From: Clostridiaceae bacterium
Lineage (GTDB): Bacteria > Bacillota > Clostridia > DSM-8532
Reading direction: 5' to 3'
DNA length: 64,000 nt
Assembly (NCBI GenBank): GCA_012728095.1
Contig: JAAYFU010000022.1
Location: 33,350 to 97,349 of the forward strand
The notes beneath the pieces are model-generated. The model saw only the letters and a program-made list of their open reading frames with translations. It searched no databases and had not been told where the DNA came from. Made by a program: the position numbers and the translations under genes. Shown one piece after another: positions 4,638 to 62,125 of the stretch (its first letter is position 1; every line of letters starts with the position of its first letter).

Positions 4638-5427
4638 CCTCTGTTATTGACATTGAATCATAATTATTCTCTCTTTTGGTATTCGGCGTCAGATATATTT
4701 CTCCGAATTCGACGTTTTGATGTATTGTGGCCCGTCCTGCCCTGACAACTTCCAATGCTGCCAAAAAACCGGTGGCCACTTCAAGACGGCTCTTCTCTCT
4801 TAGATTATATAATTTCGAAAAACACAACCTGACCCCGCTTTTTAAGAATCCCAGGATTTCTTTCACTTTTGTCCTTAACGATACTTTTTCCTGGTTTAAG
4901 ATTCGTTTCATTTTCCTAGAAACATCATTCATTCTTTCATTATATCTTTTTAATACATTAATCATGCAAGTTCTCAGGGTTTCAGGGGAGGCCTCCAACT
5001 CCTCATGCTCAATTATGTCCGGAATGGCCTCCGGCAGCTTATAATGCGCGCCGCTCCACTTTTTCTCCCTTTCGGCCAGCATTGTTGAACACTCTTTATA
5101 CTTCTTATATTCCAGGAGTTTTATAATCAATTCTTCACGCGGATCGGCCGTTTCGCTTTCCTCTTCCGGCAAAGACTCCCGCTTGGGCAGGAGCATTCTG
5201 GATTTAATATGAAGCAGTGTTGCCGCCATGACCAAAAACTCGGAAGCAATCTCCAGATCCAACTCCTGCATGGCGTTAAGATAATCCAAATACTGTTCTG
5301 TAATTTCCAGGATGGGAATGTCGTATATATCTATCTTGTTTTTTTCAATCAGATAAAACAATAAATCAAAAGGCCCTTCAAAATTTTGAAGTTTTAAGGT
5401 ACAGGCATCGGTCAGCGCGCTTTTCAT
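4630..5427 (-). CDS. scpA: Segregation and condensation protein A (kleisin)
   Basis: 265 aa. FEGPFDLLFYLIEKNKIDIYDIPILEITEQY is the typical ScpA N-terminus. Paired with scpB. Confidence 0.93.
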   Translation of the reverse strand: MKSALTDACTLKLQNFEGPFDLLFYLIEKNKIDIYDIPILEITEQYLDYLNAMQELDLEIASEFLVMAATLLHIKSRMLLPKRESLPEEESETADPREELIIKLLEYKKYKECSTMLAEREKKWSGAHYKLPEAIPDIIEHEELEASPETLRTCMINVLKRYNERMNDVSRKMKRILNQEKVSLRTKVKEILGFLKSGVRLCFSKLYNLREKSRLEVATGFLAALEVVRAGRATIHQNVEFGEIYLTPNTKRENNYDSMSITEDE

Positions 5428-5436
5428 GATATCCCC

Positions 5437-6432
5437 TTATATCCAGTCAATTTTCATGACCCGGCGAACCTCTGCCATGGTCTCTTCTGCCTTCATCCTA
5501 GCCTTTTTATTGCCTTCAATGATGATATCCTTAATATCATCGGTTCGCTTCAGCCATTGCTGCCTTCTTTCATATATTGGTGTCAATAATTCGGCAATAT
5601 TGTCGGCCAGCTTTTTCTTGCATGCTACGCAGCCAATCTTGCCGTTTCTGCAGTCATGCTCAATTTCAGCCACCTGATCCTCTGAAAAGAGCTTATGGTA
5701 TGAAAAGACTGAACAAACCTCCGGATGCCCCGGATCGGTTTTGTGTATACGGGCAGGATCCGTAACCATACTCATTATCTTTTTCCTGACAACGTCAGGA
5801 CTATCTGATAACGCAATGGTATTATTATAGCTCTTGCTCATTTTCCGCCCGTCCAACCCCGGCAAAACCTTAGCCTTCGTCAAAAGCGGCTGGGGTTCAG
5901 GAAAGACTTCCGATTTATATAAATAATTAAATCTCCTCGCGATTTCCCTGGTTATTTCCAAATGGGGAAGTTGATCCTCTCCAACAGGCACGAAATCTGC
6001 CTTGTACATAAGAATATCCGTAGCCATAAGACATGGATAACCCAAAAAACCATATGTCGCAATATTCTTATCCTTAAGCTGGGTAAGCTGATCCTTGTAT
6101 GTGGGACATCTGTAAAGCCAGGACAATGGTAAATTCATTGAAAACAGCAAATGAAGTTCCGCGTGTTCCTTAATACAGCTCTGGACAAAAAAAGTACATT
6201 TTTCAGGGTCAAGGCCCGCTGCCAGCCAGTCAACCAACAGATTGGTAATGTTATCCTTGTAATCATCGGTATTTTCATAGCCGGTAGTCAAGGCGTGATA
6301 GTCAGCAACAAAGAAATAACAATTATATTTATCCTGAAGCCTTATCCAGTTTTCCAAAGCTCCGAAATAATTGCCCAGATGCAGGGCGCCGGTTGGTCTC
6401 ATTCCGCTTAATACTGTACCTTTTTTATCCAT
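5437..6432 (-). CDS. trpS: Tryptophan--tRNA ligase
   Basis: 331 aa. Class I motifs GALHLGNYFGA (HIGH-like) and KMSKS are present; size and overall sequence fit TrpS. Confidence 0.93.
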   Translation of the reverse strand: MDKKGTVLSGMRPTGALHLGNYFGALENWIRLQDKYNCYFFVADYHALTTGYENTDDYKDNITNLLVDWLAAGLDPEKCTFFVQSCIKEHAELHLLFSMNLPLSWLYRCPTYKDQLTQLKDKNIATYGFLGYPCLMATDILMYKADFVPVGEDQLPHLEITREIARRFNYLYKSEVFPEPQPLLTKAKVLPGLDGRKMSKSYNNTIALSDSPDVVRKKIMSMVTDPARIHKTDPGHPEVCSVFSYHKLFSEDQVAEIEHDCRNGKIGCVACKKKLADNIAELLTPIYERRQQWLKRTDDIKDIIIEGNKKARMKAEETMAEVRRVMKIDWI

Positions 6433-7894: not shown

Positions 7895-8494
7895 CTATTT
7901 ATGCTTCAATATCTGAACTCTGTGTTCGGGGATCCCAAGGAGAGTGCAAACCGCATTGTTCAGTTGGGCTTTAACCAGGACGTCATCGGCTCCCTCTGCT
8001 ACAACAATTACTCCTTTTATTTGGGGAATAATCACTTTAAGGATAACAGGCTCATCAGTACCGGCTAAAGCAAGCTGCCTGGTCTCGCTGACTTCCAACG
8101 ATCTGCCGTCAACTCTTTCATCATTCCTGGTATCCTGTATATCGTTATAGGCCGGTACCTGCTCACTGCTGGTATCGGCATAAACCATGACGCTGACCTG
8201 TCCGGCCCCCTCTACTTTTGACAAAAGCTCCGATAGTCTTCTTTCTATATCAGCGACAATTTCCTGTCCTTCTAAAGAATAACCGGATTGTACCGTCTTT
8301 TTTTCCGGACCAGGCAGACTGCCTCCTTCATTCATGGTATCCTCGGTATCATTTGATTTTGCCAGGTAGCTGCCTGCCAGAATAATGATTACACCGATCA
8401 GCACTATCAATATCAGATTCTCTATGGTTGAAAGCTTCCTTTTCCCGTCCTTTTCCTTGTTCCTGACAAAAAAACCCGTTATTCCTTTAAACAT
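7895..8494 (-). CDS. spoIIIAG: Stage III sporulation protein AG
   Basis: One TM helix, then ...GAGQVSVMVYADTS...IKGVIVVAEGADD...LLGIPEHRVQI, typical of SpoIIIAG. I prefer ATG 8494 (GGAGGA RBS 8 nt upstream, 4 nt after the spoIIIAF stop) over the track start at 8527. Confidence 0.85.
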   Translation of the reverse strand: MFKGITGFFVRNKEKDGKRKLSTIENLILIVLIGVIIILAGSYLAKSNDTEDTMNEGGSLPGPEKKTVQSGYSLEGQEIVADIERRLSELLSKVEGAGQVSVMVYADTSSEQVPAYNDIQDTRNDERVDGRSLEVSETRQLALAGTDEPVILKVIIPQIKGVIVVAEGADDVLVKAQLNNAVCTLLGIPEHRVQILKHK

Positions 8495-8498
8495 AAAC

Positions 8499-9056
8499 CT
8501 ATCCTCCACTAAATGCGCTAATGTCAATGATTATCTGACTGTCTTCAATGGCAAAAGCTTCCTTAAGCTGATTTTTAATATAAGTAACAGTTTGGGGGTT
8601 TATAGTTTTCGTCCTGTTGCCGTCAGCCGGTTTAAGACTTAAATAGAGGCTTCTTATTAATCCGAATCTTTCATCCCTGGGGTCTTCGTACAATACTGCG
8701 TCTGCATTTGCGATAATAAACTCGCTGTGTCCTTTAAACCGTGTTTTAACGTCATTGATAAGAGAAATCCTGTATAGTTCCAGTATTTGGCCCAAATCCT
8801 CTTCCTGGAGCCTTGTAACCCTGTTTTTAAATTCCTTCTCCGACATCTTTACATATTGGTTCCACGCTATGCTGTCAATTTCAAAATCCCCTTTCAGCAA
8901 ATTTAAAGCAGGCTTAATAATAACAACGGTTACGACCAATCCGCAAACAAGCTTTACATACTTGCTGAGATTGCCCTGAGGCGCGAATTTCTCGATTATT
9001 GAACAAACGATTGTAATTGAGACTAACGTTATAACCCAGGTTCTTAAACCATCCAT
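8499..9056 (-). CDS. spoIIIAF: Stage III sporulation protein AF
   Basis: 185 aa with two N-terminal TM helices (WVITLVSITIVCSIIE..., LVCGLVVTVVIIKP). Position in the operon supports the call. Confidence 0.8.
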   Translation of the reverse strand: MDGLRTWVITLVSITIVCSIIEKFAPQGNLSKYVKLVCGLVVTVVIIKPALNLLKGDFEIDSIAWNQYVKMSEKEFKNRVTRLQEEDLGQILELYRISLINDVKTRFKGHSEFIIANADAVLYEDPRDERFGLIRSLYLSLKPADGNRTKTINPQTVTYIKNQLKEAFAIEDSQIIIDISAFSGG

Positions 9057-10370: not shown

Positions 10371-10760
10371 CTATAATATGCCGGAGATAATATGTATCAG
10401 TGATGTTACAACAGGTACAGCCACCACAAGCATCATAATTTTCCCGACGGTTTCAATTTTGCCGGCTATGGCGTTCTGTCCGACATCCTTGCATACATCC
10501 ACCGAAAACTGGGTTATATACGCCATCCCCGTAATTTTCAGCACCGGTACCAGCAGCTTTGCGTCAATCCCCGAACTTACAATTGTATCTTCCAGCGCTT
10601 TTACGATTGTGCCGGCTTTCCCGAAGGCTATCATCAGGGCTATAACCCCGAATATCAGCCCCAGGATCATACCCATCTCGGGATTTTTCCCTGATATAAT
10701 TACTGCACATATAGCAGCAATAATCCCTAAAATTGCAATCCGAACAAGTTCAGCTTCCAT
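10371..10760 (-). CDS. spoIIIAD: Stage III sporulation protein AD
   Basis: 129 aa, four TM segments, follows spoIIIAC. Confidence 0.85.
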   Translation of the reverse strand: MEAELVRIAILGIIAAICAVIISGKNPEMGMILGLIFGVIALMIAFGKAGTIVKALEDTIVSSGIDAKLLVPVLKITGMAYITQFSVDVCKDVGQNAIAGKIETVGKIMMLVVAVPVVTSLIHIISGIL

Positions 10761-10775
10761 AGGCTTAAATTCCTT

Positions 10776-10970
10776 TCAGAAACCGAATAAGGCTTTAACC
10801 GTGTCAAACAGTTTTACAATCTCTTTTGCCACCATCAGTAAAACCACCACTACAGCGGCTAATGTGGTCATCATGGCCATTTCCTCACGGCCTGACTTGG
10901 TAAGCACAACATTCAGTATTGATACCAGGATACCAATGGCCGCAATCTTAAAAATTAAATCCACGTTCAT
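10776..10970 (-). CDS. spoIIIAC: Stage III sporulation protein AC
   Basis: 64 aa, two TM helices. MNVDLIFKIAAIGILVSILNVVLTKSGREE is a typical SpoIIIAC sequence. Confidence 0.88.
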   Translation of the reverse strand: MNVDLIFKIAAIGILVSILNVVLTKSGREEMAMMTTLAAVVVVLLMVAKEIVKLFDTVKALFGF

Positions 10971-11128
10971 GCATGTATCCCCTTAAATCAAGATTTAATA
11001 ATGGCTTCGTCCACAATACCCCGCGCTTGGAAAGATAATATGTAAGTTTTCTTCATAAACTTAAAACTTAAGCTGCCATCTGTATTAGTTAAGTCGCTGC
11101 ACCAGGTAATAATTTATAAATGAAGATG

Positions 11129-12799: not shown

Positions 12800-13939
12800 T
12801 TATTTATAGGAAATAGAGTCGTAAACCCGTTCGTTCTTTATTATGTTATATTTTGATTCCAATCCCCAGCTTTCCAGGGCACTGTTATAAAACTCCTCGC
12901 TTGCGTTTTTCACCATTGAGTCTTTTACCGTTTCCTTTACATCTTCGAATCCGGTCCTGTCTTCAATTTTTACTACATAAATGTGATAGTCGGTTTCCAC
13001 AATATCGGCATCTCCAGGCTTATTGTCAAATACCCACTCCAGAAGATCCCATTCCAGGTAATATTGGAACATGGAGTCCTGACTATATTTTACACTGGCC
13101 TTGCCAAGCGAATTATTATTCGTATCGGTTTCTGACGAGGTTGGTTTGTCCTCGGTATACTCAGCAATCACATTATCAATCGGCTCGCCATTCTTTATTT
13201 TGCTCAAAGCTTCCTGGGCTTTTAATTTCTTTTTTTCTATTTCTACCTCTGAAAGCAATTCCCCGTTTTCATTTCTTTTACTGAGGGTTATATAGCCAAT
13301 ATCAGCACTGTCGTAAAGCTTCGGTTCCTTGTCATATTCTGCTTTTAATTGCTCATCGGTATAATCTTCCGGCTTAAAATTCTCTTCGATATATTTAGTT
13401 TTAAATTTATCTATGACACTGAACATTTCATATATCCGCTGAAGTTCCGAAGGAGTTACTTTATATGTCTCCTTAAACTGTTTATCAGTAAATTGGCTTC
13501 TCAAGGAAGATATTATTGATTCAACCTGTTGTTTTGTAGCGGCATCAATCTTGATCCCCGATTCCTGTGCCTTAATATACTGGATCATGAATTCTTTTGA
13601 GTAATTCAGGGCTTCACGTTTGGCTGTCTCATAAGGATCCTGGCCATCAGCTATGGTTGTCCAGAATTTATCTTTTTCCTCCTGGGTTGTAAGCCCTTCC
13701 TCGTATTCGGTAGCCGACATCTGCTGATGCAATAAAAACTGGTATAAGGGTTTCGATATTCTATACCCGTTAACCGTGGCCACATAACTTCCCGAATCGA
13801 TCAAATAATAAACAAGTATCGCAGCAATCACTAAAATGACCGTAACAATTAACCTTGTTATTTTTTTCTCACGCTCGGTTCTTATCAGCTTTTTCTTTTG
13901 AGGTGTTTTAACCTTCTTTATACTAATTGCCTTATCCAT
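12800..13939 (-). CDS. PrsA/SurA-like membrane-anchored foldase (parvulin-type PPIase-like domain)
   Basis: 379 aa with an N-terminal TM anchor and a SurA_N-like region (VATVNGYRISKPLYQFL). The C-terminal region (...KAQEALSKIKNGEPIDNVIAEYTED...GDADIVETDYHIYVVKI) resembles a degenerate parvulin domain. A gene downstream of mfd in this position is common in Clostridia. Confidence 0.65.
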   Translation of the reverse strand: MDKAISIKKVKTPQKKKLIRTEREKKITRLIVTVILVIAAILVYYLIDSGSYVATVNGYRISKPLYQFLLHQQMSATEYEEGLTTQEEKDKFWTTIADGQDPYETAKREALNYSKEFMIQYIKAQESGIKIDAATKQQVESIISSLRSQFTDKQFKETYKVTPSELQRIYEMFSVIDKFKTKYIEENFKPEDYTDEQLKAEYDKEPKLYDSADIGYITLSKRNENGELLSEVEIEKKKLKAQEALSKIKNGEPIDNVIAEYTEDKPTSSETDTNNNSLGKASVKYSQDSMFQYYLEWDLLEWVFDNKPGDADIVETDYHIYVVKIEDRTGFEDVKETVKDSMVKNASEEFYNSALESWGLESKYNIIKNERVYDSISYK

Positions 13940-33113: not shown

Positions 33114-33377
33114 CTATTCAACCATTCCGTTATTTACAAAAGCTTCAAGCTCGCTTAAAGCGATTGACTCGTCCCTGCCTTCGGTAATAATTGTAATGTT
33201 ATCTCCGGGACTGATTCCCAGGGACAACAGTCCCAATAAACTCTTTGCATTTGCTTTTCGTTCTCCCTTTTGAATCCAGATGTTCGATTCGTAGCTTGAA
33301 GCCTTCTGTATCAAACGTGCCGCCATTTTCGATTCAAGACCGGTTTTGCTGAAGATTGTAACTTCCTTAGATTGCAT
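33114..33377 (-). CDS. HPr-family protein, Crh-like (Ser46 region conserved, His15 replaced)
   Basis: 87 aa from ATG 33377 (AGGAGGA RBS); the longer track ORF is an N-terminal over-extension. KSLLGLLSLG matches the HPr Ser46 loop. The His15 loop GIHARPA is replaced by GLESKMA. Confidence 0.8.
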   Translation of the reverse strand: MQSKEVTIFSKTGLESKMAARLIQKASSYESNIWIQKGERKANAKSLLGLLSLGISPGDNITIITEGRDESIALSELEAFVNNGMVE

Positions 33378-33679
33378 ATTGTATTTCCTCCTGGTAATTA
33401 CCAAGTATAACTGTATTTCTATATCTATCTTATTTTCTAAGACCTTTAAATAGACATACACTAATATTATACAATAGTAATCATAAAATTCAAAGCCGTT
33501 TTTGCCTTTCGGCCCTGATTCGTCACCTTGCATCAAGATCCAGTCGAATCTTATAGTAAGAATAATGATTTTTAATAGTAAAGCAAAAAAAATATGGCTG
33601 ATTATAAAATTAAGTTATAAATTAAGTCCCATAATTTTTTAAGATAAACGCCCTATTTCCCTTTGGTACATAACCGGTT

Positions 33680-47799: not shown

Positions 47800-48186
47800 C
47801 TATATAAGTTCCCAAAGAGAGGGTATTTGAATAAACGGTAAAAAATCTCCCCAGCCAAGCAGAAGCGAAAACAAAAGATGAAGCAACGGAACTGCAACCA
47901 CTCCCAAAGCGAAATATTTCAAGGTTTGCTCGCTCTTCATCTTTAATGATAGAGGAGGCAAAAATACAGTCAAAAGAATCAGCAATATGTAATAAAGAAA
48001 GCCGGGAAGCTTTAATACATCGTTATATCGGCCGATGATAAGGCTTCCGTATACTGTTAGCATTCCGATTATATTAATCAAGAATGACTTTGATTTATAC
48101 TGACTTCCCATGACAATCCTAATAACGCATAAAAAAGCCAAATATGTTACCGCGGCCATTATAAGAAATCTAAAAGCATTATCCAC
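47800..48186 (-). CDS. Hypothetical small membrane protein (4 TM)
   Basis: 128 aa, four hydrophobic segments, no motif I recognise. It fills the gap between leuS and mrnC on the same strand. Confidence 0.5.
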   Translation of the reverse strand: MDNAFRFLIMAAVTYLAFLCVIRIVMGSQYKSKSFLINIIGMLTVYGSLIIGRYNDVLKLPGFLYYILLILLTVFLPPLSLKMKSEQTLKYFALGVVAVPLLHLLFSLLLGWGDFLPFIQIPSLWELI

Positions 48187-48197
48187 TTTTTACACCT

Positions 48198-50657
48198 CTA
48201 TCTTACGACAATATTGATTAACCGGCCTTTAACAACAATTATTTTGACTATATTTTTCCCTTCCAGGTATTGGGCCGAACGCGGATCTTTCTTAACAAGA
48301 TCTTCAATTTCTTTATCTTCTGCGTCAGTAGGCACATTTATTCTGAACTTGATTTGTCCGTTAAACTGAACGGCAATTTCTACCTCATCCTTTACCAGCG
48401 CTTTTTCGTCATGTACAGGCCAGCTCTGGTTGAAGATAAAGTCTTTCTCTCCTATTGTTTCCCACATTTCTTCGGCAAAATGAGGTGCAAATGGTGACAT
48501 AAGCTTTAACAGATCCTTTATGACATCCTCCATCAAACTGCGGTTTTTGTCCGGCTTCATATCATATTTATATATCGCGTTAACCAACTCCATCAGCCTT
48601 GCTATTGCCGTATTAAACTGGAACTGGTCGGTATCCTGGGTTACATTCTTGATTGTATAGTGCCGTACAAAATTAAGCTCCTTCTCATCGGGTCCCATGT
48701 TATTGGTAGATGGTTTTCCTCTTTCACTGACCACTTTTTCAATTAACCTGTCCACTCTTCCTATAAAGCGATCGATAGCCTTAATCCCGTCATCGCTCCA
48801 GGGACCTCCTTCAACATAGGCAAAGCCGAAGGCCAGATACATTCTGAAAACATCCGAACCATATTTGTTGATATATTCATCAGGGGTCACGGTATTGCCT
48901 CTGGACTTGGACATTTTTTGTCCGTCCGAGCCTAAAATCGTGCCTTGATGAACCAGCGAAAGGAAAGGCTCATCAAAATTGAGATAGCCCATATCTCTCA
49001 AAGCCTTTGTAACAAAGCGCGCATACAGAAGATGCATGGCAGCGTGCTCTGCTCCTCCCACATACTTGTCAACGGGAAGAATCTTATTGATCCATTCGGG
49101 ATCAAAGGCCTGCTTATCGTTTTTATTGTCCGGGTACCTTAAAAAATACCAGCTGGAGCAGACAAAAGTATCCAAAGTATCCGAATCCCTCTTGGCAGGG
49201 CCTCCGCAAGACGGACAAACAGTATTTATAAATGACTCGCATTTAGCTAGCGGGGACTCGCCGTCGGGAGTAAAGACCACATCATAAGGAAGCTCAACCG
49301 GCAATTGATCCTCGGGAACCGGAACAATGCCGCACTTTTCACAGTGAATAATCGGAATCGGAGCGCCCCAGTAGCGCTGTCTTGAAACAAGCCAGTCTCT
49401 TAAACGATAAGTAACCTTATGCTCACCTTTTCCCTGTTGGGAGAGCTTGTCGACAATTTTCCGACGGGCTTCTTCGGATGTGATTCCGTCAAACTCCTGG
49501 CTGTTGACTAAAACACCGTCTTCAACAAAAGGCAGAGTATCATCAACGCCGTCTTTACCCTTAATGACACGAATTATATCAAGCCCGTACTTGGTGGCAA
49601 ACTCGTAATCACGTTCGTCATGGGCCGGCACAGCCATAACGCACCCGGTTCCATATCCTGCTAATACATAATCGGCTATCCATATCGGAACTTTTTTGCC
49701 GGTCAGCGGATGAATAGCATATGCTCCGGTAAACACACCGGTTTTCTCCCGTACTGTTGAAAGCCTGTCAATCTCCGAAACCTTGTTAACCTGTTCGCGA
49801 TATTCCTCTACAGCTTCTCGTTGTTCAGGAGTGGTTATTATGTCGACCAGCTCATGTTCCGGTGCCAGAACCACATAAGTTACACCGTACAGCGTATCGG
49901 CACGGGTAGTAAATACATTGAACGTGATTTCTTCGGGGGGCTTGTCCCCGTTATCCACCTTAAACTCTATTTGGGCCCCTTCTGAACGTCCTATCCAGTT
50001 TGTCTGTATCTTCTTGGTCTTTTCAGGCCAATCCAGCGCCGGCAGACAATCCAATAACTCCTGCGCATACTCGGTAATTTTAAAGAACCATTGAGTCAGA
50101 TTCTTCCTGGTTACTTCGCTGCCACAACGCTCACATGCCCCGTCTACAACCTGCTCATTGGCAAGAACGGTCTTACAGCTGGGACACCAGTTAACCGGAG
50201 CTTTTTTCCGGTATGCAAGACCTTTTTTATACAATTGAAGGAATATCCATTGAGTCCATTTATAATATTCAGGAACGCATGTAATTACCTCATAGTCCCA
50301 ATCGAAGGTAGCCCCCATTTCTTTCAGCTGCCGTTCCATGGTCTCAATGTTTTTCATGGTAGAATCCATGGGATGTATTCCGGTCTTAATGGCATAGTTC
50401 TCGGCAGGAAGGCCGAAAGCATCGAAACCCTGGGGATGGAATACATTATATCCCTGCATCCTCTTCATTCTTGCCCATGAATCGGTGAGGCCGAAATTGT
50501 ACCAATGCCCTACGTGAAGATTAGCTCCTGACGGATAAGAAAACATTTCAAGGCAATATAGCTTTTTATCCAGATTATTCCGGTCAAACTTATATAATTT
50601 GCTTTCTTCCCATCTTTTCTGCCATTTTTTATCTACTTCCCTAGAATAACTCATCAC
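48198..50657 (-). CDS. leuS: Leucine--tRNA ligase
   Basis: About 819 aa. HVGHWYNF (HIGH) and KMSKSRGN (KMSKS) motifs, CP1 editing domain. I prefer ATG 50657 (GGAGGT RBS) over the track start at 50678. Confidence 0.95.
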
Positions 50658-50671
50658 AATACCTCCGAAAA

Positions 50672-51034
50672 TCAGCATTCCTTGTGTAGTTCCTGGATAT
50701 CAACAGGCTTTCCGTCCTGCCATAGTCTTTCAAGGTCATAATACTTTCTGTCTTCTTCATGGAATATGTGGACAATAACATCACCGTAGTCCAGCAAAAT
50801 CCATCTTGCATGATTATATCCTTCTATCCTTAAAGGGGTTAACCCGCTTTCCTCCAGCTTTTCAACCAGGTTATCGCTGAGAGCTTTTATATGAGTAACC
50901 GACGTGCCGCTCGCAATTACAAAATAATGCGTTATTGTCGTCAGCTCGTGAATGTCAATGACTTTGATATTTACTGCCTTCTTGTCCTCCAGCGCGTTAA
51001 TTACAAGATTTAAACCCTTGTGTTTAATTTCCAT
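50672..51034 (-). CDS. rsfS: Ribosome silencing factor RsfS
   Basis: 120 aa. ...[18 protein letters not shown]...[14 protein letters not shown]...YDLERLW is the RsfS/Iojap signature. Confidence 0.92.
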
Positions 51035-53093: not shown

Positions 53094-53697
53094 ACTTTAT
53101 TTTCTTTACTCTTGATGAAGGCCAAAGAATAAATGTTGCTTTACCTTCAACAGAATTTATGCTAATCAAATCGGCGGCTGTCATCGGACATCTCCCTGTT
53201 ATCCCCCATAACAAATAATTTATTTTCAGGTACCTTAAGGGGATATTCCATATTCCCTTTGGAAGTTTTCCCTAGAACATACGTTTTTTTCTCCGGCTCA
53301 CCGTTTACATATACATTACCGTCATCGTCTATCTCAATGACATCTCCGGGTAAGCCAATAATGCGCTTAACATAACGCACATTTGTACGCTCACTTTTTC
53401 CCGTCAGTAAATCCATTAAATCAGTAAATTTTATCTTTACAGCATCGAATATCCCATGTATTTCCCTGCCTTCTGCCAAGAAAAGCACGATATCTCCCCT
53501 ATTAAAATGCTCCGGTTTATTGGCAAGCCGATTATATAATAAACGATATCCCCTTCAAGCAAAGTGTTTCTAATGGAAACCTGTTTTACTTCGGATATGG
53601 TAAATAACGTAATATTTAGAGTGAAAACAATAATAAAGATTACCGTTATTGTAACCGTAAGACTTATTATTTCCCCAATCAGTCTTTTTACTTTCAT
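53086..53697 (-). pseudogene. Signal peptidase I (S26) gene disrupted by two frameshifts
   Basis: Homology-consistent sequence is spread over three frame segments. Segment 1: MKVKRLIGEIISL(TM)...VSIRNTLLEGDIVYY. Segment 2, after a shift near 53531-53540: NRLANKPEHFNRGDIVLF...YVKRIIGLPGD...FVMGDNREMSDDSRRF. Segment 3, after a shift near 53164-53168: ISINSVEGKATFILWPSS...KYD, with its stop at 53086. Confidence 0.8.
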
Positions 53698-53791
53698 CGA
53701 CACCGCTCCGAATAATTTGCCATAAAAATTACTACATTCATTAAATTCTTATAAAGATTATATCATAATATCATAAGTATAAATCTTACAA

Positions 53792-54668: not shown

Positions 54669-55472
54669 CTATCGGTTGAGGATGGCATGAGCCGATTCGA
54701 TAACGGTAGTTACAATAATCTCAGGCTTTATTTCCATACTTCCGTTTACTAAATACAGTAAGTACTCAATATTGCCTTCCGGCCCTTTTATAGGAGAAAA
54801 TGAAAGTCCTGCGACAGAAAAGCCCAACTCCAGGGAAGAAGCAATAACTGAATTTATAACTTCTTCATGGACCTTGGGATCTTTAACTACGCCCTTTTTC
54901 CCCACCTTGTTCCTTCCCGCTTCAAATTGCGGTTTAATAAGGCATACCACTTTGCCGAAAGGTTTCAACAGGTTTTTTAACGGAGGCAATATAAGTTTCA
55001 GGGATATAAACGAGACATCGACAGACCCGAAATCCAAAGGTTCGCTTATTTGTTCCCTGGTTACATAACGGAAATTTGTGCGTTCCATGCAAACTACTTT
55101 GGGATTGTTTCTGAGTTCCCATGCTAACTGGCCGTAGCCCACGTCTACTGCATATACTTTTTTGGCGCCGTTCTTCAGCATAACATCGGTAAAGCCGCCT
55201 GTTGACGCGCCTACATCCACACAGACCAGGTCTTTAAGGTCAATGTTAAACTCCAAAATTGCCTTCTCAAGCTTTAAACCTCCGCGGCTTACATAGGGAA
55301 TCGGTTTGCCTTTTATCTCTATGTCACAATCCTCGACGTACGACGAACCAGGCTTATCTGCACGTTCGCCGTTAACGTATACTATGCCGGACATGATGGC
55401 GGTTTTAGCCTTTTCACGACTTTCAAAGAATCCTTTGTTAACTAAAATTTGATCCAGTCTTACCTTAGCCAT
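54669..55472 (-). CDS. tlyA: TlyA-family rRNA (cytidine-2'-O)-methyltransferase
   Basis: 267 aa. S4 domain (VRLDQILVNKGFFESREKAKTAIMSG) and FtsJ-like domain (CVDVGASTGGFTD). Confidence 0.9.
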   Translation of the reverse strand: MAKVRLDQILVNKGFFESREKAKTAIMSGIVYVNGERADKPGSSYVEDCDIEIKGKPIPYVSRGGLKLEKAILEFNIDLKDLVCVDVGASTGGFTDVMLKNGAKKVYAVDVGYGQLAWELRNNPKVVCMERTNFRYVTREQISEPLDFGSVDVSFISLKLILPPLKNLLKPFGKVVCLIKPQFEAGRNKVGKKGVVKDPKVHEEVINSVIASSLELGFSVAGLSFSPIKGPEGNIEYLLYLVNGSMEIKPEIIVTTVIESAHAILNR

Positions 55473-55599: not shown

Positions 55600-57504
55600 T
55601 CATCCATTCATGAAAAACTCTTTTATTATTGCGGATTTTATCCCTTCCGCATCAAGGCCGTATTTTTTGTATATGAGTTCTGTTTTTCCGTGTTCAATGC
55701 CTTTATTCGGAAGACCTATTATTTTTGTATACGCGCCGATCCGGGCATCATTTATAAGTCCTGTTACATAAGCCCCAAATCCGCCTTCCTGGATAACATC
55801 CTCAATCACTACGACTTTTTTTGTTTTTCTTGCTGACGTAAGTATCATTTCATCATCTACCGGTCGCAGAAATCTCGGATTTATGATTTCGCAAGAAATC
55901 CTTTCCGCCTCCAGCAATCTGGCTGCTTCAAAGGTACATTCCAGCATCTTCCCCACACCAATCAGGGTAACCGAGGTACCTTCCTTTAAAAGTACGCCTT
56001 TGCCATATTCGAGGGGAACGTCCGAACCTTCGAATTCACGGCCTGAACCCTTCGGATAACGGACGGCAACAGGCCCTTGATGTTTTAACACTGCATAATC
56101 CAGCATGTTTCTAAGCTCATTCGGCGATGCCGGAGACAGGATCGTCATATTTGGTATGGTGTAAAGATAGGAAACATCATAGATACCCTGGTGGGTTTCC
56201 CCGTCATCCCCTACGACTCCGGCGCGGTCTATGGCAAAAACCACCTTAAGGTTTTGCAAGGCTACATCATGAAGTATTTGGTCATATGCCCGCTGCAGGA
56301 AAGTAGAATATATGGCAACCACCGGCTTCACTCCGCCCATGGCCAGGCCGGCGGCCAGGGTTACGGCATGCTGTTCGGCTATGCCCACATCAAAAAATCT
56401 CCTGGGATACAATTCCCTGAACTGCGACAGACCTGTCCCGTCGGTCATGGCTGCCGTAATGGCAATAATCTTATCATCCTGTTTTGCCAGCTCGCACATT
56501 TTTCTGCCAAATATGCTTGAATAATCCTCGCTTCCTGAATTCACCAACTGGCCGGTCTCGATTTCAAAGGGCGCAACTCCGTGATAAACGCCCGGATTTT
56601 CCTCTGCAAACTTATATCCTTTCCCTTTTACGGTAACAACATGGACCAGAACCGGACCTTTCATTGTTTTAGCCTGTTCAAAAACTTCTACCATTTCTTT
56701 TATATTATGACCGTCAATTGGCCCGAAATAGCGAAAACCCAGGTCTTCAAAAAACATCGACGGTATAAACATACTTTTCATCGATGCTTTTATTTTATGC
56801 AGGAACTTTCTGAGCCTCCTGCCTGATCTGGGCAGCGAATCTATAAAGGCCTGCATAGATTCCCTGGTTTTATAGTAAAGAGGGCGAACGCGGATTTTGC
56901 TTAAATATCGGGACAGGCCCCCAACATTAGGCGCAATTGACATGCCGTTGTCATTAAGAATGACCAATAGATTGGTGCGGGACATACCGGCATCATTTAA
57001 TGCTTCCAATGCCATTCCTCCTGATAAAGCCCCGTCTCCTATTACCGCCACCACCGTATAATTCTCATGTTTTAAATCCCGCGCCCTTGCCATTCCCAAT
57101 GCCGCGGAAACCGAGGTACTGCTGTGCCCCGTATTAAATACATCATATTCACTTTCCTGGGTTTTGGGAAAACCTGCAATTCCGCCTAATTGACGCAGGG
57201 TTTCAAAACAGTCTTTGCGCCCCGTTAGAATCTTGTGTACATATGTTTGATGACCTACATCCCAGATTATTTTATCCACTGGCGCGTTCAAAACCTTGTG
57301 AAGTGCCAAAGTCAATTCCACAACACCCAGATTGGAGGCAATGTGGCCGCCGGTTTTAGAAATGGTATCAAGCAGAAACAGACGGATTTCTTCTGCCAAT
57401 ATACCCAGTTCATCATATGTCAGTTTCTTAAGGTCATCAGGCGAATTAATTCTTGAAAGATATCCATAACATTTGCTATCATTCTTAAACAACAAATAAT
57501 ACAC
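55600..57504 (-). CDS. dxs: 1-deoxy-D-xylulose-5-phosphate synthase
   Basis: 634 aa, GTG start. GGHIASNLGVVELTLALH, the TPP motif GDGALSGGMALEALN and transketolase-like C-terminal domains are present. Confidence 0.95.
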   Translation of the reverse strand: MYYLLFKNDSKCYGYLSRINSPDDLKKLTYDELGILAEEIRLFLLDTISKTGGHIASNLGVVELTLALHKVLNAPVDKIIWDVGHQTYVHKILTGRKDCFETLRQLGGIAGFPKTQESEYDVFNTGHSSTSVSAALGMARARDLKHENYTVVAVIGDGALSGGMALEALNDAGMSRTNLLVILNDNGMSIAPNVGGLSRYLSKIRVRPLYYKTRESMQAFIDSLPRSGRRLRKFLHKIKASMKSMFIPSMFFEDLGFRYFGPIDGHNIKEMVEVFEQAKTMKGPVLVHVVTVKGKGYKFAEENPGVYHGVAPFEIETGQLVNSGSEDYSSIFGRKMCELAKQDDKIIAITAAMTDGTGLSQFRELYPRRFFDVGIAEQHAVTLAAGLAMGGVKPVVAIYSTFLQRAYDQILHDVALQNLKVVFAIDRAGVVGDDGETHQGIYDVSYLYTIPNMTILSPASPNELRNMLDYAVLKHQGPVAVRYPKGSGREFEGSDVPLEYGKGVLLKEGTSVTLIGVGKMLECTFEAARLLEAERISCEIINPRFLRPVDDEMILTSARKTKKVVVIEDVIQEGGFGAYVTGLINDARIGAYTKIIGLPNKGIEHGKTELIYKKYGLDAEGIKSAIIKEFFMNG

Positions 57505-57505
57505 C

Positions 57506-58162
57506 TCAACTCAGCCGCTTCTTCCTGCATTTTTTATTATGCGTCCCTTTTCCTGAGAAAACTGCGATTATACGGCCAACTTTATAAACGATATAATTGG
57601 CGTTATTTATACCTATATTCTTGGCAAATGCTTTTCCTCCGACAGTGAAAGCCGCTGTTAAAGCGCCTATCAATATTTCAAGCAAAGAAACATTCGCATT
57701 GTCGGCAAAAAGCTTATATACGATGGCCGTTCCTGCGGCTCCGCTGACAACGCTGCATATATCTCCTATTACATCGTTGCAGAAGCTGGATACTCTGGGG
57801 GCATTGCGCAGTAAGTTTATTGATTCTCTGGCTCCTTTTTTCTTTTTTGATGCCATTGAATGAAAAGGGGTCTCATCTGCGGCCGTAACCGCCATCCCTA
57901 TAACATCAAACAACACGCCGATAAAAATAATCCCCAGCACGACCAATAACGCAAAGGGAGGTGAAATGGTTTTAAATATACTGGTGGAAGCAAATAATAT
58001 GAGTATTGACAGTGTAAAGGAAATAACCGTAATAAAAAGCCCCCACAAAACATGCTCTTTTTCTATGCCAGAGGCTTTTTTTACAGGTATATTCTCACCG
58101 GATAATTCTTTATACTTATCTATAAGTTTTATATATTTCTTTTCCGACTTTTCCTGGTTCAA
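57506..58162 (-). CDS. oapA: OLE-associated membrane protein A candidate (OapA)
   Basis: 218 aa, TTG start, about four TM segments, with duplicated FDVIGM / NDVIGD (DxxxD) motifs. It sits immediately 3' of the structured RNA and 5' of dxs, which is the published position of oapA. Confidence 0.7.
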   Translation of the reverse strand: MNQEKSEKKYIKLIDKYKELSGENIPVKKASGIEKEHVLWGLFITVISFTLSILILFASTSIFKTISPPFALLVVLGIIFIGVLFDVIGMAVTAADETPFHSMASKKKKGARESINLLRNAPRVSSFCNDVIGDICSVVSGAAGTAIVYKLFADNANVSLLEILIGALTAAFTVGGKAFAKNIGINNANYIVYKVGRIIAVFSGKGTHNKKCRKKRLS

Positions 58163-58202
58163 GAAAAATCCTGCCTTCTCGGTTTTTCAGCAATTTATAA
58201 TA

Positions 58203-58816
58203 AACAGGATGGCAACAACCCGGGTAAATTTTGCGGCTTAGGTCAGGCAGGTTTTCCCCGACAGATACCGAATCGTCGCCGTTTCGGCGGTTTCCCTTTA
58301 AATCCATCGTTGATAGGTTACCCTTGTCAAAGCCTGATTACCACTTAGTCCACACTGCAATCCCCGGATTGCCTCTTTTACAAACAGCCTAGGGGTTTTC
58401 CCCGAGAGCCTGTGCCTACTCTAGCCTCTTTTGCATCGCTGGTTTCAAACGGCAATATTGCTTATGTATCGGCCAATACATAAACACGTGATCCGTTATC
58501 CTCCAAACAACACTCAAGGCAGGCTACACTGCCCGCAGCATCAAAAGAGATACCGCCTGGCAGGTTCACTCCCTCATCGTAGTCAAGATTTTCGCTTGCG
58601 CGGGGCAATCTGTCTTCCACAATTGAGGGTCTCCGCGGTAAAGGGGTCAGTCTCCGCATGCCATTGCGGGCTGCCCCAAAACCTTAACTCCCAGCACCAG
58701 CCCATCACTGGGCGTAACAAGCCGGCACAAGGAACTTCATCGATGTGCCCTTTAACGGATTTTTAGGCCCGTCTTCGAAGTAGGCAGTACTGACTAGGAT
58801 ACTGCGCCATCCTGTT
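58203..58816 (-). ncRNA. ole: OLE (ornate, large, extremophilic) RNA candidate
   Basis: A 614-nt ORF-poor region, visibly richer in G+C than its surroundings. It is enclosed by the helix AACAGGAUGGC (58816-58806) / GCCAUCCUGUU (58213-58203). Many internal hairpins are present: GGCACA...UGUGCC, GCCCA-GUGA-UGGGC, UUAUGUAU-UGGCCG-AUACAUAA, GGGG-AAAA-CCCC, GCAAUC-CGGG-GAUUGC, CGCCG-AAA-CGGCG. The synteny nusB-xseA-xseB-ispA-[RNA]-oapA-dxs-tlyA matches the described OLE locus. Confidence 0.8.
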
Positions 58817-58858
58817 ATTTTACTGTTGTGAGAAAATATTATACACTATAAGCTGTTT

Positions 58859-59281
58859 TTATGCAAACAATAATGCTACCAGTATCCCCAAAGCGGCACC
58901 GGCAAACACTTGCACCGGTGTATGCCCCAACAGTACCTTTAGTTCTTTATCCACCCTGATTTCCCTGGAGTGATAAATCAGCTTGTTTAGAACCTCGGCT
59001 TGTTTCCCGGCCGCTCTTCTTACGCCTGCCGCATCTGCCATTACAATGAAGGACAATATGGTAGAAATGGCAAATTCACTGGAATTAAGTCCGTTTTTAA
59101 TGGCCATTACAGTTGCAAGGCATACTGTTATCGCACTATGGGAACTGGGCATTCCTCCCGAAGCGACCAGCTTCTTAAAGTCAATTTTCCTATGTTGAAT
59201 TAAATGAATGACAAATTTTATTAATTGAGCCAAAAACCATGAAATGATCGGCAAAGTTATGGCTTTGTTGGCAAAAAACAT
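58859..59281 (-). CDS. Divergent PAP2 family membrane protein (YuiD-like, DUF212)
   Basis: ASGGMPSSHSA, ADAAGVRRAAGKQA and LLGHTPVQVFAG match the YuiD-type acid phosphatase/haloperoxidase-related family. I prefer ATG 59281, which aligns with the YuiD N-terminus, over 59359, which would overlap ispA. Confidence 0.8.
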   Translation of the reverse strand: MFFANKAITLPIISWFLAQLIKFVIHLIQHRKIDFKKLVASGGMPSSHSAITVCLATVMAIKNGLNSSEFAISTILSFIVMADAAGVRRAAGKQAEVLNKLIYHSREIRVDKELKVLLGHTPVQVFAGAALGILVALLFA

Positions 59282-59327
59282 TTCCACCTGTGTCAAGTTC
59301 GTATCTCCCCTGTATATACCCTCATAT

Positions 59328-60230
59328 TCATTTATTTCTTTCCGAGATATAGTGCGCAATCTGGGTCAAAAACTCACTATTCTCCATTCCGTCCAGCGCT
59401 TTTACCGCATTTTCAACAGAAGTTTTAAGAAGTTCTTTAGCCTTTGCTATTCCCAAAATGCTGACAAAAGTAGATTTGTTATTGGCAGCGTCGCTTCCGG
59501 TCAATTTGCCCGTAACTCTACTGTCTCCTTCAAAATCAAGAATATCATCTTTTATTTGAAATGCCAGTCCTATGTTTTCGGCATAAATCTCCAGTTTATC
59601 AACAATGTTTTTTTCGGTATTGAAAAGTATGGCGGGCGCCAATACGGAAGCCCGGATCAATGCGCCAGTCTTCTTTTTATGCATTCGGCACAGTACATTA
59701 TATGAAATTTCCGCTTTTTCTGATTCCATATCAATAACCTGTCCCCCTATCATTCCTTTAACTCCTGAGGAAACAGATATCATGTAAGCGGTTTTCATGC
59801 GGGAATAATTCTTATTATCATCTTTCATTGTCTCTTTAAGCATGATTTCAAATGCAAGATTCAAAAGGCCGTCACCTGCAAGAACAGCCATAGCCTCACC
59901 AAATACCTTGTGATTTGTAAGTTTTCCTCTTCTGTAATCATCGTTGTCCATGCATGGGAGGTCATCATGTATAAGCGAATAGGTATGGATTAATTCAATG
60001 GCTCCGGCAAATGGGATTAATTCTTTTTCGTCCCCATGAATCAGGTCACAGACAGCCAGAGACAGAACAGGCCTGATTCTCTTTCCTCCTGCCATCAAGC
60101 TGTATCTCATGGCTTCATAGATTCTTTTTTCAGGCAATTCATCCTGCGAAAGTCTTACTTCCGGCAGGACCCCTTCCAGCCAATTCTCCACTACGGTTAA
60201 ATATTGTTTATACCTGGTATCAAAATCCAT
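59328..60230 (-). CDS. ispA: Farnesyl diphosphate synthase (polyprenyl synthetase)
   Basis: 300 aa. First DDxxD region LIHDDLPCMDNDDYRRG and second FQIKDDILD. Confidence 0.92.
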   Translation of the reverse strand: MDFDTRYKQYLTVVENWLEGVLPEVRLSQDELPEKRIYEAMRYSLMAGGKRIRPVLSLAVCDLIHGDEKELIPFAGAIELIHTYSLIHDDLPCMDNDDYRRGKLTNHKVFGEAMAVLAGDGLLNLAFEIMLKETMKDDNKNYSRMKTAYMISVSSGVKGMIGGQVIDMESEKAEISYNVLCRMHKKKTGALIRASVLAPAILFNTEKNIVDKLEIYAENIGLAFQIKDDILDFEGDSRVTGKLTGSDAANNKSTFVSILGIAKAKELLKTSVENAVKALDGMENSEFLTQIAHYISERNK

Positions 60231-60232
60231 TA

Positions 60233-60478
60233 CTACAAATCATCGGGGTTAAAGTCCTTCTCGATGATACCGTCCTTTCCCTCAATTAAGAGTGTAATTC
60301 GTTTTTCAATATCATCCAGTTTTTTATTGCATATCCGGACAAGGCTGATTCCTTTTTCAAATATCTTTATGGATTCTTCCAGCGGCAGGTCTCCGCTTTC
60401 AAGCATATTAACTATACTTTCCAGTTCCAGGACCGCCTGCTCATATGTAATATCGGCATTTTCTTCCTTATTGGTCAT
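60233..60478 (-). CDS. xseB: Exodeoxyribonuclease VII small subunit
   Basis: 81 aa. YEQAVLELESIVNMLESGDLPLEESIKIFEKGISLVRICNKKLDDIEKRI is the XseB pattern. Confidence 0.92.
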   Translation of the reverse strand: MTNKEENADITYEQAVLELESIVNMLESGDLPLEESIKIFEKGISLVRICNKKLDDIEKRITLLIEGKDGIIEKDFNPDDL

Positions 60479-60494: not shown

Positions 60495-61691
60495 TTAAAG
60501 TATTTTATCGCAGACAGAACTGAATTTGCCGTCGCTAACTGTTATGACAAGTTTATCACCAGGCTCCAGTCCTTTGACCGAACGTATTAGCCTGCCGGCT
60601 TCATCCTGAATGACTCCATATCCCCTGCTTAATACTGTAAGAGGACTTAAAGCATTCAGCTTTGCTATTGTTGTCTTTAACGAGGTCTTGTATCTGTCCA
60701 ATTGGGTTCTGCCATGAAGTATCAGGTTTCTTTCAACAGCATCCAGGCTCTGTCTTTTTTGATTGATCAATTCCATAGGTTTCTGAAGACATCTTGCGTT
60801 TTGCAACCTTGATAATCTGTCTCTTTCCTTTTTAAGTGAAAACAATAAACAATTAAGAAGTCTCTTTTCATATGTAGCCAAAGCCTCCTGCAAAGCCTTT
60901 TTTTCAGGCATAACAAGTTCTGCCGCGGCAGAAGGCGTTGGAGCCCTTAAGTCAGCGACAAAATCTGATATTGAGTAATCAGTTTCATGGCCTACCGCTG
61001 AAATTATTGGAATTTCAGATTTTGAAATGGCAATCGCCAGACTCTCTTCGTTAAAAGGCCATAAATCCTCGAGGGAACCGCCGCCGCGGGCAAGAATAAT
61101 TACGTCTACATTCCGGACCTTGTTAAAATACCTGATGCCGTCAGCCAACTGCATGGCCGCCTCGGCTCCCTGGACGGCAGTGCCGTATACAATTACCCTT
61201 GCATTTGGATATCTTCTGTTCAATACATTAATTATATCCCTGATAACCGCGCCGGTAGGCGATGTTATTACTCCGATTGCCCGAGGCAGCATCGGTATCT
61301 TTTTTTTTCGGGCCGTATCAAAAAGGCCCTGGGCTTCCAGCTTCTTTTTTAGCTGTTCAAATGCCATATATAAGGCTCCGGTGCCGTCGGGCTGCATAGA
61401 ATCCACATAAAGCTGATATGCCCCGCCTAAAGGATAAACAGAAACATATCCCCTGACCAATACACGCATTCCTTCTTCAGGTCTGAATTTCAGCCTGCTG
61501 TTTTGCGTTCTGAACATTACACATTTTATTACCGCTCCCTGATCTTTCAGGGAAAAATACATATGTCCGGAGGTATGGAATTTGTAATTGGAGATCTCGC
61601 CGGTTACCCAGACATTAGAAAGCAGCATGTCGCTGTCAACAAGCTGCTTAATATATGTTGTTAATTCAGTTACGGTCAATGTTTTTTCCAT
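60495..61691 (-). CDS. xseA: Exodeoxyribonuclease VII large subunit
   Basis: 398 aa. OB-fold N-terminus (VWVTGEISNYKFHTSGHMYFSLKD), catalytic region (IGVITSPTGAVIRD, ARGGGSLEDLW). Paired with xseB. Confidence 0.93.
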   Translation of the reverse strand: MEKTLTVTELTTYIKQLVDSDMLLSNVWVTGEISNYKFHTSGHMYFSLKDQGAVIKCVMFRTQNSRLKFRPEEGMRVLVRGYVSVYPLGGAYQLYVDSMQPDGTGALYMAFEQLKKKLEAQGLFDTARKKKIPMLPRAIGVITSPTGAVIRDIINVLNRRYPNARVIVYGTAVQGAEAAMQLADGIRYFNKVRNVDVIILARGGGSLEDLWPFNEESLAIAISKSEIPIISAVGHETDYSISDFVADLRAPTPSAAAELVMPEKKALQEALATYEKRLLNCLLFSLKKERDRLSRLQNARCLQKPMELINQKRQSLDAVERNLILHGRTQLDRYKTSLKTTIAKLNALSPLTVLSRGYGVIQDEAGRLIRSVKGLEPGDKLVITVSDGKFSSVCDKIL

Positions 61692-62125
61692 TATTGTTCC
61701 TCCGAATCAGCAGCGGCATTATCCGCCAGTTCGGCATATATCTTACCTAAAACACCGTTAACAAATGTTTTCGATTGGTCGCCGCTGTATTTTTTAGCCA
61801 ATTCAACAGCCTCATTTATTGATACGTTAACCGGAATATCATTCCTGTATTTCATTTCGAAACAGGAAAGCCGCATAATGGCCAGATCTACTTTGGGCAT
61901 TCTTTGAACGGTCCATCCCTTGGCATGTTTTGAGATAAGGTGATCCAGTTCCTCAACGTTTTCAATAACACCGTTTACCACGTCAATAAAATACTCTTTA
62001 TCCTGTTCCCTGGTTATTTCATGTTCTTCAATGAACCGACTAATCTGTTCTTCAATGTCGTCCTTTTGTATCTGAACCTGGTAAAGCAGTTTCATTGCGT
62101 TTTCCCGTGCTTCTCTTCTTCCCAA
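61691..62125 (-). CDS. nusB: Transcription antitermination factor NusB
   Basis: 144 aa. RREARENAMKLLYQ and INEAVELAKKY...FVNGVLG motifs. Confidence 0.93.
   Translation of the reverse strand: MGRREARENAMKLLYQVQIQKDDIEEQISRFIEEHEITREQDKEYFIDVVNGVIENVEELDHLISKHAKGWTVQRMPKVDLAIMRLSCFEMKYRNDIPVNVSINEAVELAKKYSGDQSKTFVNGVLGKIYAELADNAAADSEEQ

Follow-up and report, generated by a model that had tools for sequence, protein, structure and literature searches.

In a 64,000-nt stretch of a contig from a Clostridiaceae bacterium (JAAYFU010000022.1; hereafter the window, within which all coordinates are given), 696 nt separate the stop codon of a gene for a DUF212 membrane protein (58859) from the start of the next coding sequence (58162). 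What does this gap encode? A preliminary description, made from the sequence, had proposed an OLE (ornate, large, extremophilic) RNA, a member of a family that reportedly goes back to Puerta-Fernandez et al. in 2006, and had suggested a search with the Rfam covariance model and a look for covariation in orthologues. That proposal is borne out by a match to the Rfam model RF01071, by covariation in 93 orthologous OLE RNAs and by a neighboring oapA gene, and we conclude that 58826..58193 on the minus strand is very probably an intact OLE RNA gene in its customary gene cluster. OLE RNAs are among the largest conserved bacterial non-coding RNAs and a membrane-spanning arrangement and a part in coordinating stress responses have been proposed for them. 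Because annotation based on open reading frames (ORFs) would leave this 0.7-kb gap empty, marking ole there and oapA as the gene after it puts the annotation right.

The suggested covariance-model search gave a clear answer. When the whole window was compared with Rfam 15, RF01071 (OLE) matched 58826..58193 on the minus strand at E 8.2e-154 with 534.1 bits, the gathering score being 50. The match covers all model positions (1-616 of 616), is not truncated and occurs on the minus strand only. It is also the sole Rfam match above any gathering score in the whole 64 kb; a permissive rescan (E<=0.5) added just two further matches, both at chance level, and a tRNA scan of the same 64 kb returned zero tRNA genes.

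58193..58826, minus strand: OLE RNA gene, the full RF01071 match of 634 nt, with a P1-bounded core at 58203-58816

The composition and folding of the gap agree with this assignment. Its length and its lack of ORFs beyond 111 aa are both as first described, the longest being a 111-aa ORF at 58431-58766 on the plus strand, antisense to the OLE RNA. The gap had likewise been called richer in G+C than its flanks, and we found values of 0.47-0.54 over 58150-58900 versus 0.36-0.44 in flanking windows, with Rfam giving 0.50 for the OLE match itself. The minimum free energy of the region is -249.3 kcal/mol versus -200.4 +/- 6.8 for shuffles (z = -7.15), and the minimum-energy fold recovers the closing helix.

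Relatives were gathered by an exact search for the invariant 18-mer AAGGGCACAUCGAUGAAG, keeping one genome per species. This gave at least 120 loci, and nhmmer located an OLE homologue in 115 of the at least 120 loci listed. We aligned the window RNA and 93 full-length homologues with MAFFT (94 sequences in total, not fitted to structure). Conservation reaches at least 90% at 228 columns of the other 93 OLE RNAs, and the window carries the majority base at 227 of these; the length of about 600 nt and the roughly one quarter of nearly invariant nucleotides that mark OLE RNAs are thus both present (634 nt; 227/228). Mapped onto the window, the Rfam consensus structure has 146 of its 159 pairs standard. 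Across the alignment, consensus pairs are standard in 86.5% of cells, versus 41-46% when the 3' partners are slid by 1-3 columns, and 133 of the 159 show changes on both sides, the mean of 500 shuffles being 108.9. None of the 500 shuffles matched the observed value on any pairing or covariation measure. The variable middle segments of P7 and P9 are 53-75% paired in the MAFFT alignment, which we attribute to alignment quality and do not count as evidence against those stems.

The same alignment bears on whether the gap encodes small proteins instead. ORFs that could do so exist, namely the 111-aa plus-strand ORF at 58431-58766 and minus-strand ORFs of 63-65 aa, but the 94 homologues differ by substitutions that compensate one another within base pairs and do not follow a codon pattern, and indels of arbitrary length occur in variable stems and regions. 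The preliminary description had also reported no ribosome-binding sites for these ORFs, and the covariance-model match accounts fully for the conservation. We give a coding function next to no probability.

With nhmmer, no OLE homologue was detected in five of the gathered loci (L024, L044, L048, L069 and L081: two Acidobacteriota metagenome-assembled genomes (MAGs), Alistipes, Streptomyces and Acidaminococcus), which are probably chance matches to the 18-mer. Two OLE-positive loci, L101 ('Deltaproteobacteria') and L079 ('Fibrobacter'), are MAG contigs, and mis-binning is likely for that reason.

The stems that close the OLE RNA, P1, P2, P3 and P3.1, are not in the Rfam structure line, and we located them by scanning for diagonals of covariation that link the first 53 nt of the molecule to its 3' part. 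In OLE positions, the scan placed P1 at 15-21 with 614-620, P2 at 22-25 with 440-443 and at 29-33 with 435-439 around a UAU bulge, P3 at 35-38 with 418-421, and P3.1 at 42-49 with 406-413, the last in the window's own register. Jointly these stems are 90.6% paired versus 34-46% when slid, and changes on both sides are seen for 24 of their 31 pairs. In the window itself, P1 has 11 bp, P2 has 9 bp and the UAU bulge, P3.1 has 8 bp, and P3 has 3 bp and one C.C.

58806..58816, minus strand: 5' strand of P1, AACAGGAUGGC, which pairs with 58203-58213; covariation in 94 sequences
58203..58213, minus strand: 3' strand of P1, GCCAUCCUGUU, which pairs with 58806-58816
58794..58805, minus strand: 5' strand of P2, GCAG-UAU-CCUAG, which pairs with 58384-58392 (CUAGGCUGU) and holds the CUAG palindrome
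58778..58792, minus strand: 5' strand of P3 and P3.1, which pairs with 58406-58421; 90-94% paired, at most 6 pair types per position

The 11-bp helix that had been noticed closing the region is real and is the P1 of the family. Its two strands are exact reverse complements, and the gap holds no longer perfect inverted repeat. By itself such a repeat is just marginally unusual, as inverted repeats of at least 11 bp arose in 12 of 300 gap shuffles. The inner 7 bp (58812-58806 / 58213-58207) are conserved and covarying: over the 94 OLE RNAs they are 87-100% paired, and a single position shows as many as 5 pair types. Beyond them, 4 outer bp (AACA/UGUU) extend the stem and are paired in just 40-72% across the family. 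The helices of P2 are 99.5-100% paired, and its Y29-R439 pair covaries (UA in 68, CG in 25).

Within the limits set by P1-P3, which close the molecule, the RNA can form a 5' domain of P4-P9 and a 3' domain comprising the P10-P15 region. The long-range helix that closes the 3' domain (helix 15) is 95.6% paired, with all 11 of its pairs covarying.

58754..58773, minus strand: P4 hairpin with the conserved A-rich loop CUAAAAAU; 98.4% paired (helix 1)
58738..58745, minus strand: palindrome CAUCGAUG of the P4a / J4a-5 region, invariant; alignment positions 75-92 are invariant
58688..58734, minus strand: P5/P5.1 stem with its GCCCA loop at 58709-58713; helix 2, 20 pairs, 96.6% paired, 15 changing on both sides
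58637..58683, minus strand: P6/P6.1 stem with the conserved loop AAUGGCAU at 58658-58665; helices 3-4, invariant columns
58571..58629, minus strand: P7, a variable stem with a 15-nt insert relative to the Rfam model and the cap CGC-GCAA-GCG; helix 5, 17 of 17 pairs covary
58529..58563, minus strand: P8 stem; helix 6, 87.9% paired, 11 of 13 pairs covary
58424..58520, minus strand: P9, a long stem with the tip UUAUGUAU-UGGCCG-AUACAUAA; helices 7-12, palindromic GGCC at 58471-58474
58214..58373, minus strand: 3' domain (P10-P15 region), closed by the long-range helix 58363-58373 / 58214-58224; helices 15-21
58310..58330, minus strand: P13 hairpin with the GNRA tetraloop GUAA at 58318-58321 and a single bulged A at 58325; the expected OapB site
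58267..58288, minus strand: P14.1 hairpin with a GCGA tetraloop at 58276-58279; helix 21, 87.7% paired

Six compact hairpins had previously been listed inside the closing helix. The sequence contains every one of them; two correspond to conserved elements, a third is an alternative pairing, and the other three clash with covarying helices. The hairpin UUAUGUAU-UGGCCG-AUACAUAA is the tip of P9. GGGG-AAAA-CCCC captured a conserved 3-bp GAAAA hairpin but was drawn one register off, with a fourth C that belongs to P2. GGCACA/UGUGCC is an alternative 'P4a'-type pairing, possible in 85% of family cells; its invariant 5' arm puts it beyond the reach of covariation. The remaining three do not hold up: the GCCCA of GCCCA-GUGA-UGGGC is the conserved P5.1 loop, and the hairpin conflicts with covarying consensus helices; GCAAUC-CGGG-GAUUGC is 54% paired in the family, and its 5' arm lies in the long-range helix that closes the 3' domain; and where CGCCG-AAA-CGGCG was proposed, the conserved helix is GCCGAAACG-GCGA-CGAUUCGGU, with a GNRA loop. 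We rejected GCCCA/UGGGC, GCAAUC/GAUUGC and CGCCG/CGGCG as conserved elements because they compete with covarying helices. Covariation in orthologues, the second check suggested at the outset, therefore speaks for the consensus helices and P1 and against these three hairpins.

At the level of sequence, the elements by which OLE RNAs contact proteins and one another are in place. Sites for OapA have been mapped in or near P2 and P4a (PMC12265935), and the palindromes CUAG (P2) and CAUCGAUG (P4a region) are both present. The k-turn recognized by OapC comprises J4a/5 and neighboring nucleotides (PMC9723947); the corresponding segments, J4a/5 and GGGAGUUAAGG, are identical to the consensus. OapB binding requires the GNRA loop of P13 together with a one-nucleotide bulge, with P14.1 serving as a weak secondary site (PMC7936274), and P13 of the window has the loop GUAA and a one-nucleotide bulge, A. 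Finally, OLE dimers are bridged by loops, namely the A-rich one of P4, GCCCA, AAUGGCAU and the GGCC of P9 (PMC12265935, PMC12286853), the last of which is a palindromic kissing loop in the dimer solved by cryogenic electron microscopy (cryo-EM; PMC12286853). The window RNA has all of the dimer loops, CUAAAAAU, GCCCA, AAUGGCAU and UUGGCCGA. P7 and P8 are variable in the literature and take no part in dimer contacts.

The first gene downstream of the OLE RNA, which had been described as encoding a membrane protein, encodes a homologue of OapA.

57506..58162, minus strand: oapA (OLE-associated protein A), 218 aa from a TTG start; start codon uncertain

The TTG at 58162 is preceded by the purine-rich stretch GAAGGCAGGA. 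We identify the 218-aa protein as OapA because of its CNNM match, the homologues found downstream of other OLE RNAs, its conserved motifs, and its hydrophobic segments and basic loop. Residues 75-203 match the CNNM domain (PF01595) with 31.2 bits versus a cut-off of 28.4, and no other domain was found in the 218 aa; a weak CNNM match of this level is typical for OapA proteins (PMC11332333). A tblastn search placed a same-strand OapA homologue directly downstream of OLE in 91 of the 115 loci listed, and the best match among these was the protein of Thermoclostridium caenicola, with 64.8% identity over 213 aa. The DxxxD motif, specific to OapA and located in a transmembrane helix (PMC11332333), reads DVIGD at residues 130-134, within the conserved block fcnDViGDI. 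A simple hydropathy scan found three strongly hydrophobic segments, the segment bearing DxxxD falling below the threshold, and the basic loop at residues 96-126 has 7 K/R versus 3 D/E. A sequence search of OapA against solved structures gave matches at chance level only (E 0.35-0.49), and no NCBIfam model matched either OapA or the DUF212 protein.

How is this RNA likely to be transcribed? One promoter-like site lies just upstream of it.

58838..58867, minus strand: promoter-like site TTTGCA-18-TATAAT, 10 of 12 matches, ending about 12 nt upstream of the OLE 5' end

It is the sole minus-strand promoter-like site in 57300-60400, and both hexamers are kept upstream of the T. caenicola OLE (L086, ~4610-4650). 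This hints that ole-oapA may have a promoter of its own in the lineage of the window and T. caenicola, besides any read-through from the operon. A scan of the minus strand between ole and oapA found no terminator-like site, which suggests that ole is co-transcribed with oapA and dxs. In Halalkalibacterium halodurans, the cluster is transcribed as one polycistronic RNA (PMC12265935).

Such an arrangement would also suit a different explanation, that the structured region is only a long cis-acting leader (a 5' untranslated region acting as a riboswitch or attenuator) for oapA-dxs-tlyA and that no separate RNA exists. On the minus strand, 30 nt separate the OLE region from oapA downstream, and these hold no terminator-like site; given also the promoter-like site ahead of the RNA, a common transcript with oapA is probable. 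However, the region is a full-length member of a family that elsewhere forms an abundant, stable, protein-binding and membrane-localised RNA (PMC12265935), and its size, its approximately 25 helices and its conserved intermolecular dimer loops (PMC12286853) are unlike any known leader. Our scan found no expression platform, either a terminator or a hairpin sequestering the ribosome-binding site. We consider a mere leader very unlikely.

If the OLE RNA of the window behaves like its relatives, an RNA of about 0.6 kb would be made from the promoter-like site just upstream or within a long operon transcript, and it would dimerise via the loops named above (A-rich in P4, GCCCA, AAUGGCAU and the palindromic GGCC in P9). 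A dimer of four-helix OapA would hold the RNA at the membrane by binding near CUAG (P2) and CAUCGAUG (P4a), while OapB would bind the bulged GNRA hairpin P13 and OapC the k-turn flanking P5; in the published picture, OLE RNA would bind bS21 as well. The resulting particle would be expected to aid tolerance of short-chain alcohols, cold, excess Mg2+ and poor carbon sources. In the published model of P3, the stem lies across the bilayer, and OapA is related to CNNM-type Mg2+ transporters (PMC12265935, PMC11332333); by analogy, the particle may be an OapA/CNNM-like ion-homeostasis device whose P3 stem crosses the bilayer. The statement in the preliminary description that the function of OLE is unresolved is partly overtaken by these reports, as protein partners, a dimeric cryo-EM structure and the transmembrane model have since been published (PMC12265935, PMC12286853).

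Several points weigh against the view of an intact OLE RNA working in this way. Every functional step is carried over from genetic and biochemical work on H. halodurans and from cryo-EM of the OLE RNAs of two Clostridium species, and the transmembrane model of P3 is a published hypothesis, not an established fact. Neither oapB (KOW-domain ybzG) nor oapC (L7Ae-family ybxF) is found among window ORFs of at least 70 aa, where linkage is not expected. The promoter scan as a whole gave 8 sites versus 7.3 expected, with no enrichment over shuffles, and we therefore treat the promoter-like site as a lead and not a finding. The single departure from the columns that are at least 90% conserved is a C for G at OLE position 421 (window 58406), which turns the conserved C35-G421 pair at the base of P3 into C.C.

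This mismatch in a highly conserved P3 pair might be read, along with the 13 of 159 consensus pairs that are non-standard in the window and the 15-nt insert that P7 carries relative to the model, as the mark of a decaying, non-functional OLE remnant. Yet the match is full-length at 534 bits with 227 of 228 conserved positions intact, the non-standard pairs fall mostly in variable segments of P6, P7 and P9 that are poorly paired family-wide, and an intact oapA follows. Additionally, T. caenicola (L086) has the same CUC at the 3' strand of P3, so the C.C looks like a lineage trait rather than decay. A remnant is exceedingly unlikely. The OLE RNA of the window is a full-length, near-consensus member of its family that is able to form the conserved fold and is linked to oapA.

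The surrounding genes place this OLE RNA in the cluster nusB-xseA-xseB-ispA-(DUF212)-ole-oapA-dxs-tlyA.

61691-62125, minus strand: nusB
60495-61691, minus strand: xseA
60233-60478, minus strand: xseB
59328..60230, minus strand: ispA (farnesyl diphosphate synthase); NF045485, 349 bits
58859..59359, minus strand: gene for a DUF212 'divergent PAP2' (YuiD-like) membrane protein; PF02681, 164.4 bits, from residue 30; likely start ATG 59281
55600..57504, minus strand: dxs (1-deoxy-D-xylulose-5-phosphate synthase); TIGR00204, 804.7 bits; starts 1 nt after the oapA stop
54669..55472, minus strand: tlyA-family rRNA 2'-O-methyltransferase gene; TIGR00478, 286 bits

The order nusB-xseA-xseB-ispA-[RNA]-membrane protein-dxs-tlyA given at the outset is as stated, with the DUF212 gene standing between ispA and the RNA. 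Most of the 115 loci listed have ispA, xseA/B and nusB upstream of OLE and dxs and tlyA downstream. Among the 89 listed loci with at least 1.5 kb upstream, ispA is the immediate upstream neighbor of ole in 52, and the DUF212 gene lies directly between ispA and ole in 14, all of which are Clostridia-type records (L086, L027, L082, L101, L037, L014 and L054 are among them).

Could the DUF212 protein be an unrecognised, lineage-specific partner of the OLE-OapA particle, with a dedicated promoter then driving ole-oapA-dxs? In the literature searched, we found no paper that pairs 'OLE RNA' with 'DUF212', and we regard the idea as unlikely. If true, the protein could be, for example, a polyprenyl- or lipid-phosphate phosphatase tying a membrane-embedded RNA to isoprenoid lipid metabolism. 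A published link between HPr/ptsH and OLE was also considered; the terms are absent from PMC10898510, and we make no such claim for the HPr-domain gene at 33114-33536.

The closest OLE among the matches listed is that of T. caenicola DSM 19027 (L086, NZ_FQZP01000003.1), with about 80% RNA identity and an nhmmer score of 438 bits. The two loci have in common the order DUF212-ole-oapA, the promoter-like hexamers and the CUC at the 3' strand of P3, and their OapA proteins are 64.8% identical. They nevertheless come from different species or genera, as the DUF212 proteins are just 58% identical and the OapA proteins 65%, and the P7 and P8 sequences differ. The H. halodurans OLE is of similar length (637 nt versus 634 nt in the window), has the same consensus helices and invariant nucleotides, and is likewise followed by oapA inside an ispA...dxs cluster (PMC12265935, PMC9723947). 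Its host is an alkaliphilic Bacillus relative, whereas that of the window is a Clostridia-type spore-forming anaerobe. Its P13 has GUGA and a bulged U (PMC7936274), in contrast to GUAA and a bulged A, and the window differs further in the DUF212 gene between ispA and ole and in the one C.C pair of P3.

The dimers seen by cryo-EM are those of Clostridium acetobutylicum and C. botulinum OLE (PMC12286853; Wang et al. 2025, as cited in PMC12265935), and the loops that bridge them all recur in the window RNA: the A-rich L4, GCCCA, AAUGGCAU and the palindromic L9 GGCC. The C. acetobutylicum OLE is 577 nt long versus 634 nt, a difference that lies mainly in P7. On the protein side, the window OapA resembles the transmembrane domain of CNNM/CorB/MpfA Mg2+ transporters (PF01595), which it matches weakly (31.2 versus 28.4 bits). 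Unlike those transporters, it is only 218 aa long, has no CBS or CorC domains and carries the OapA-specific DxxxD. Proteins of the MpfA type (CNNM-CBS-CorC) anticorrelate with OLE (PMC11332333).

The OLE RNA of the window is thus an orthologue of a well-described RNA family in its usual locus, found by a standard Rfam model; it is of a known kind and no discovery. Its slightly unusual features are only the DUF212 gene between ispA and ole, the C.C in P3 and the promoter-like site common to T. caenicola. As a copy from a Thermoclostridium-like anaerobe, it adds one extra sequence for comparative and structural work, leaves knowledge of the OLE family unchanged and raises no new question.

An anaerobic spore-former had been proposed as the host, and this fits both the gene content of the window and the fact that the nearest OLE among the matches listed comes from T. 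caenicola. The window contains the sporulation genes of the spoIIIA operon, yqfD, yabP, gpr, an alpha/beta-type small acid-soluble spore protein gene and ytfJ, along with genes for the Rnf complex, Na+-translocating oxaloacetate decarboxylase and type III glutamine synthetase, as well as mfd. A spore-forming anaerobe of the Clostridia fits because of this sporulation and energy and central-metabolism gene content. The window genes and the nearest relatives therefore point to a Bacillota host of the typically anaerobic or extremophilic sort in which OLE RNAs occur.

A few further observations concern other parts of the window. For trpS (5437-6432) and leuS (48198-50678), no T-box leader or other riboswitch was found in the 64 kb at E<=0.5, a search that took in the 386-nt gap before trpS. 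A type I signal peptidase (S26) gene at 53162-53703 on the minus strand looks split into two overlapping ORFs. One (88 aa, 53437-53703) has a membrane anchor and the Ser-box-like SIRNTLLEGD, and the other (108 aa, 53162-53488) matches positions 67-151 of 168 in PF10502, which suggests a frameshift, a pseudogene or a sequencing error. The ORFs with no Pfam match at E<=1e-5 include those at 12800-13939 (minus strand), 10378-10986 (plus strand), 7895-8527 (minus strand) and 47800-48186 (minus strand). One unmatched ORF, of 379 aa, lies between spoIIIAA and mfd; another, of 210 aa, falls inside the spoIIIA operon and may be a divergent spoIIIAG.

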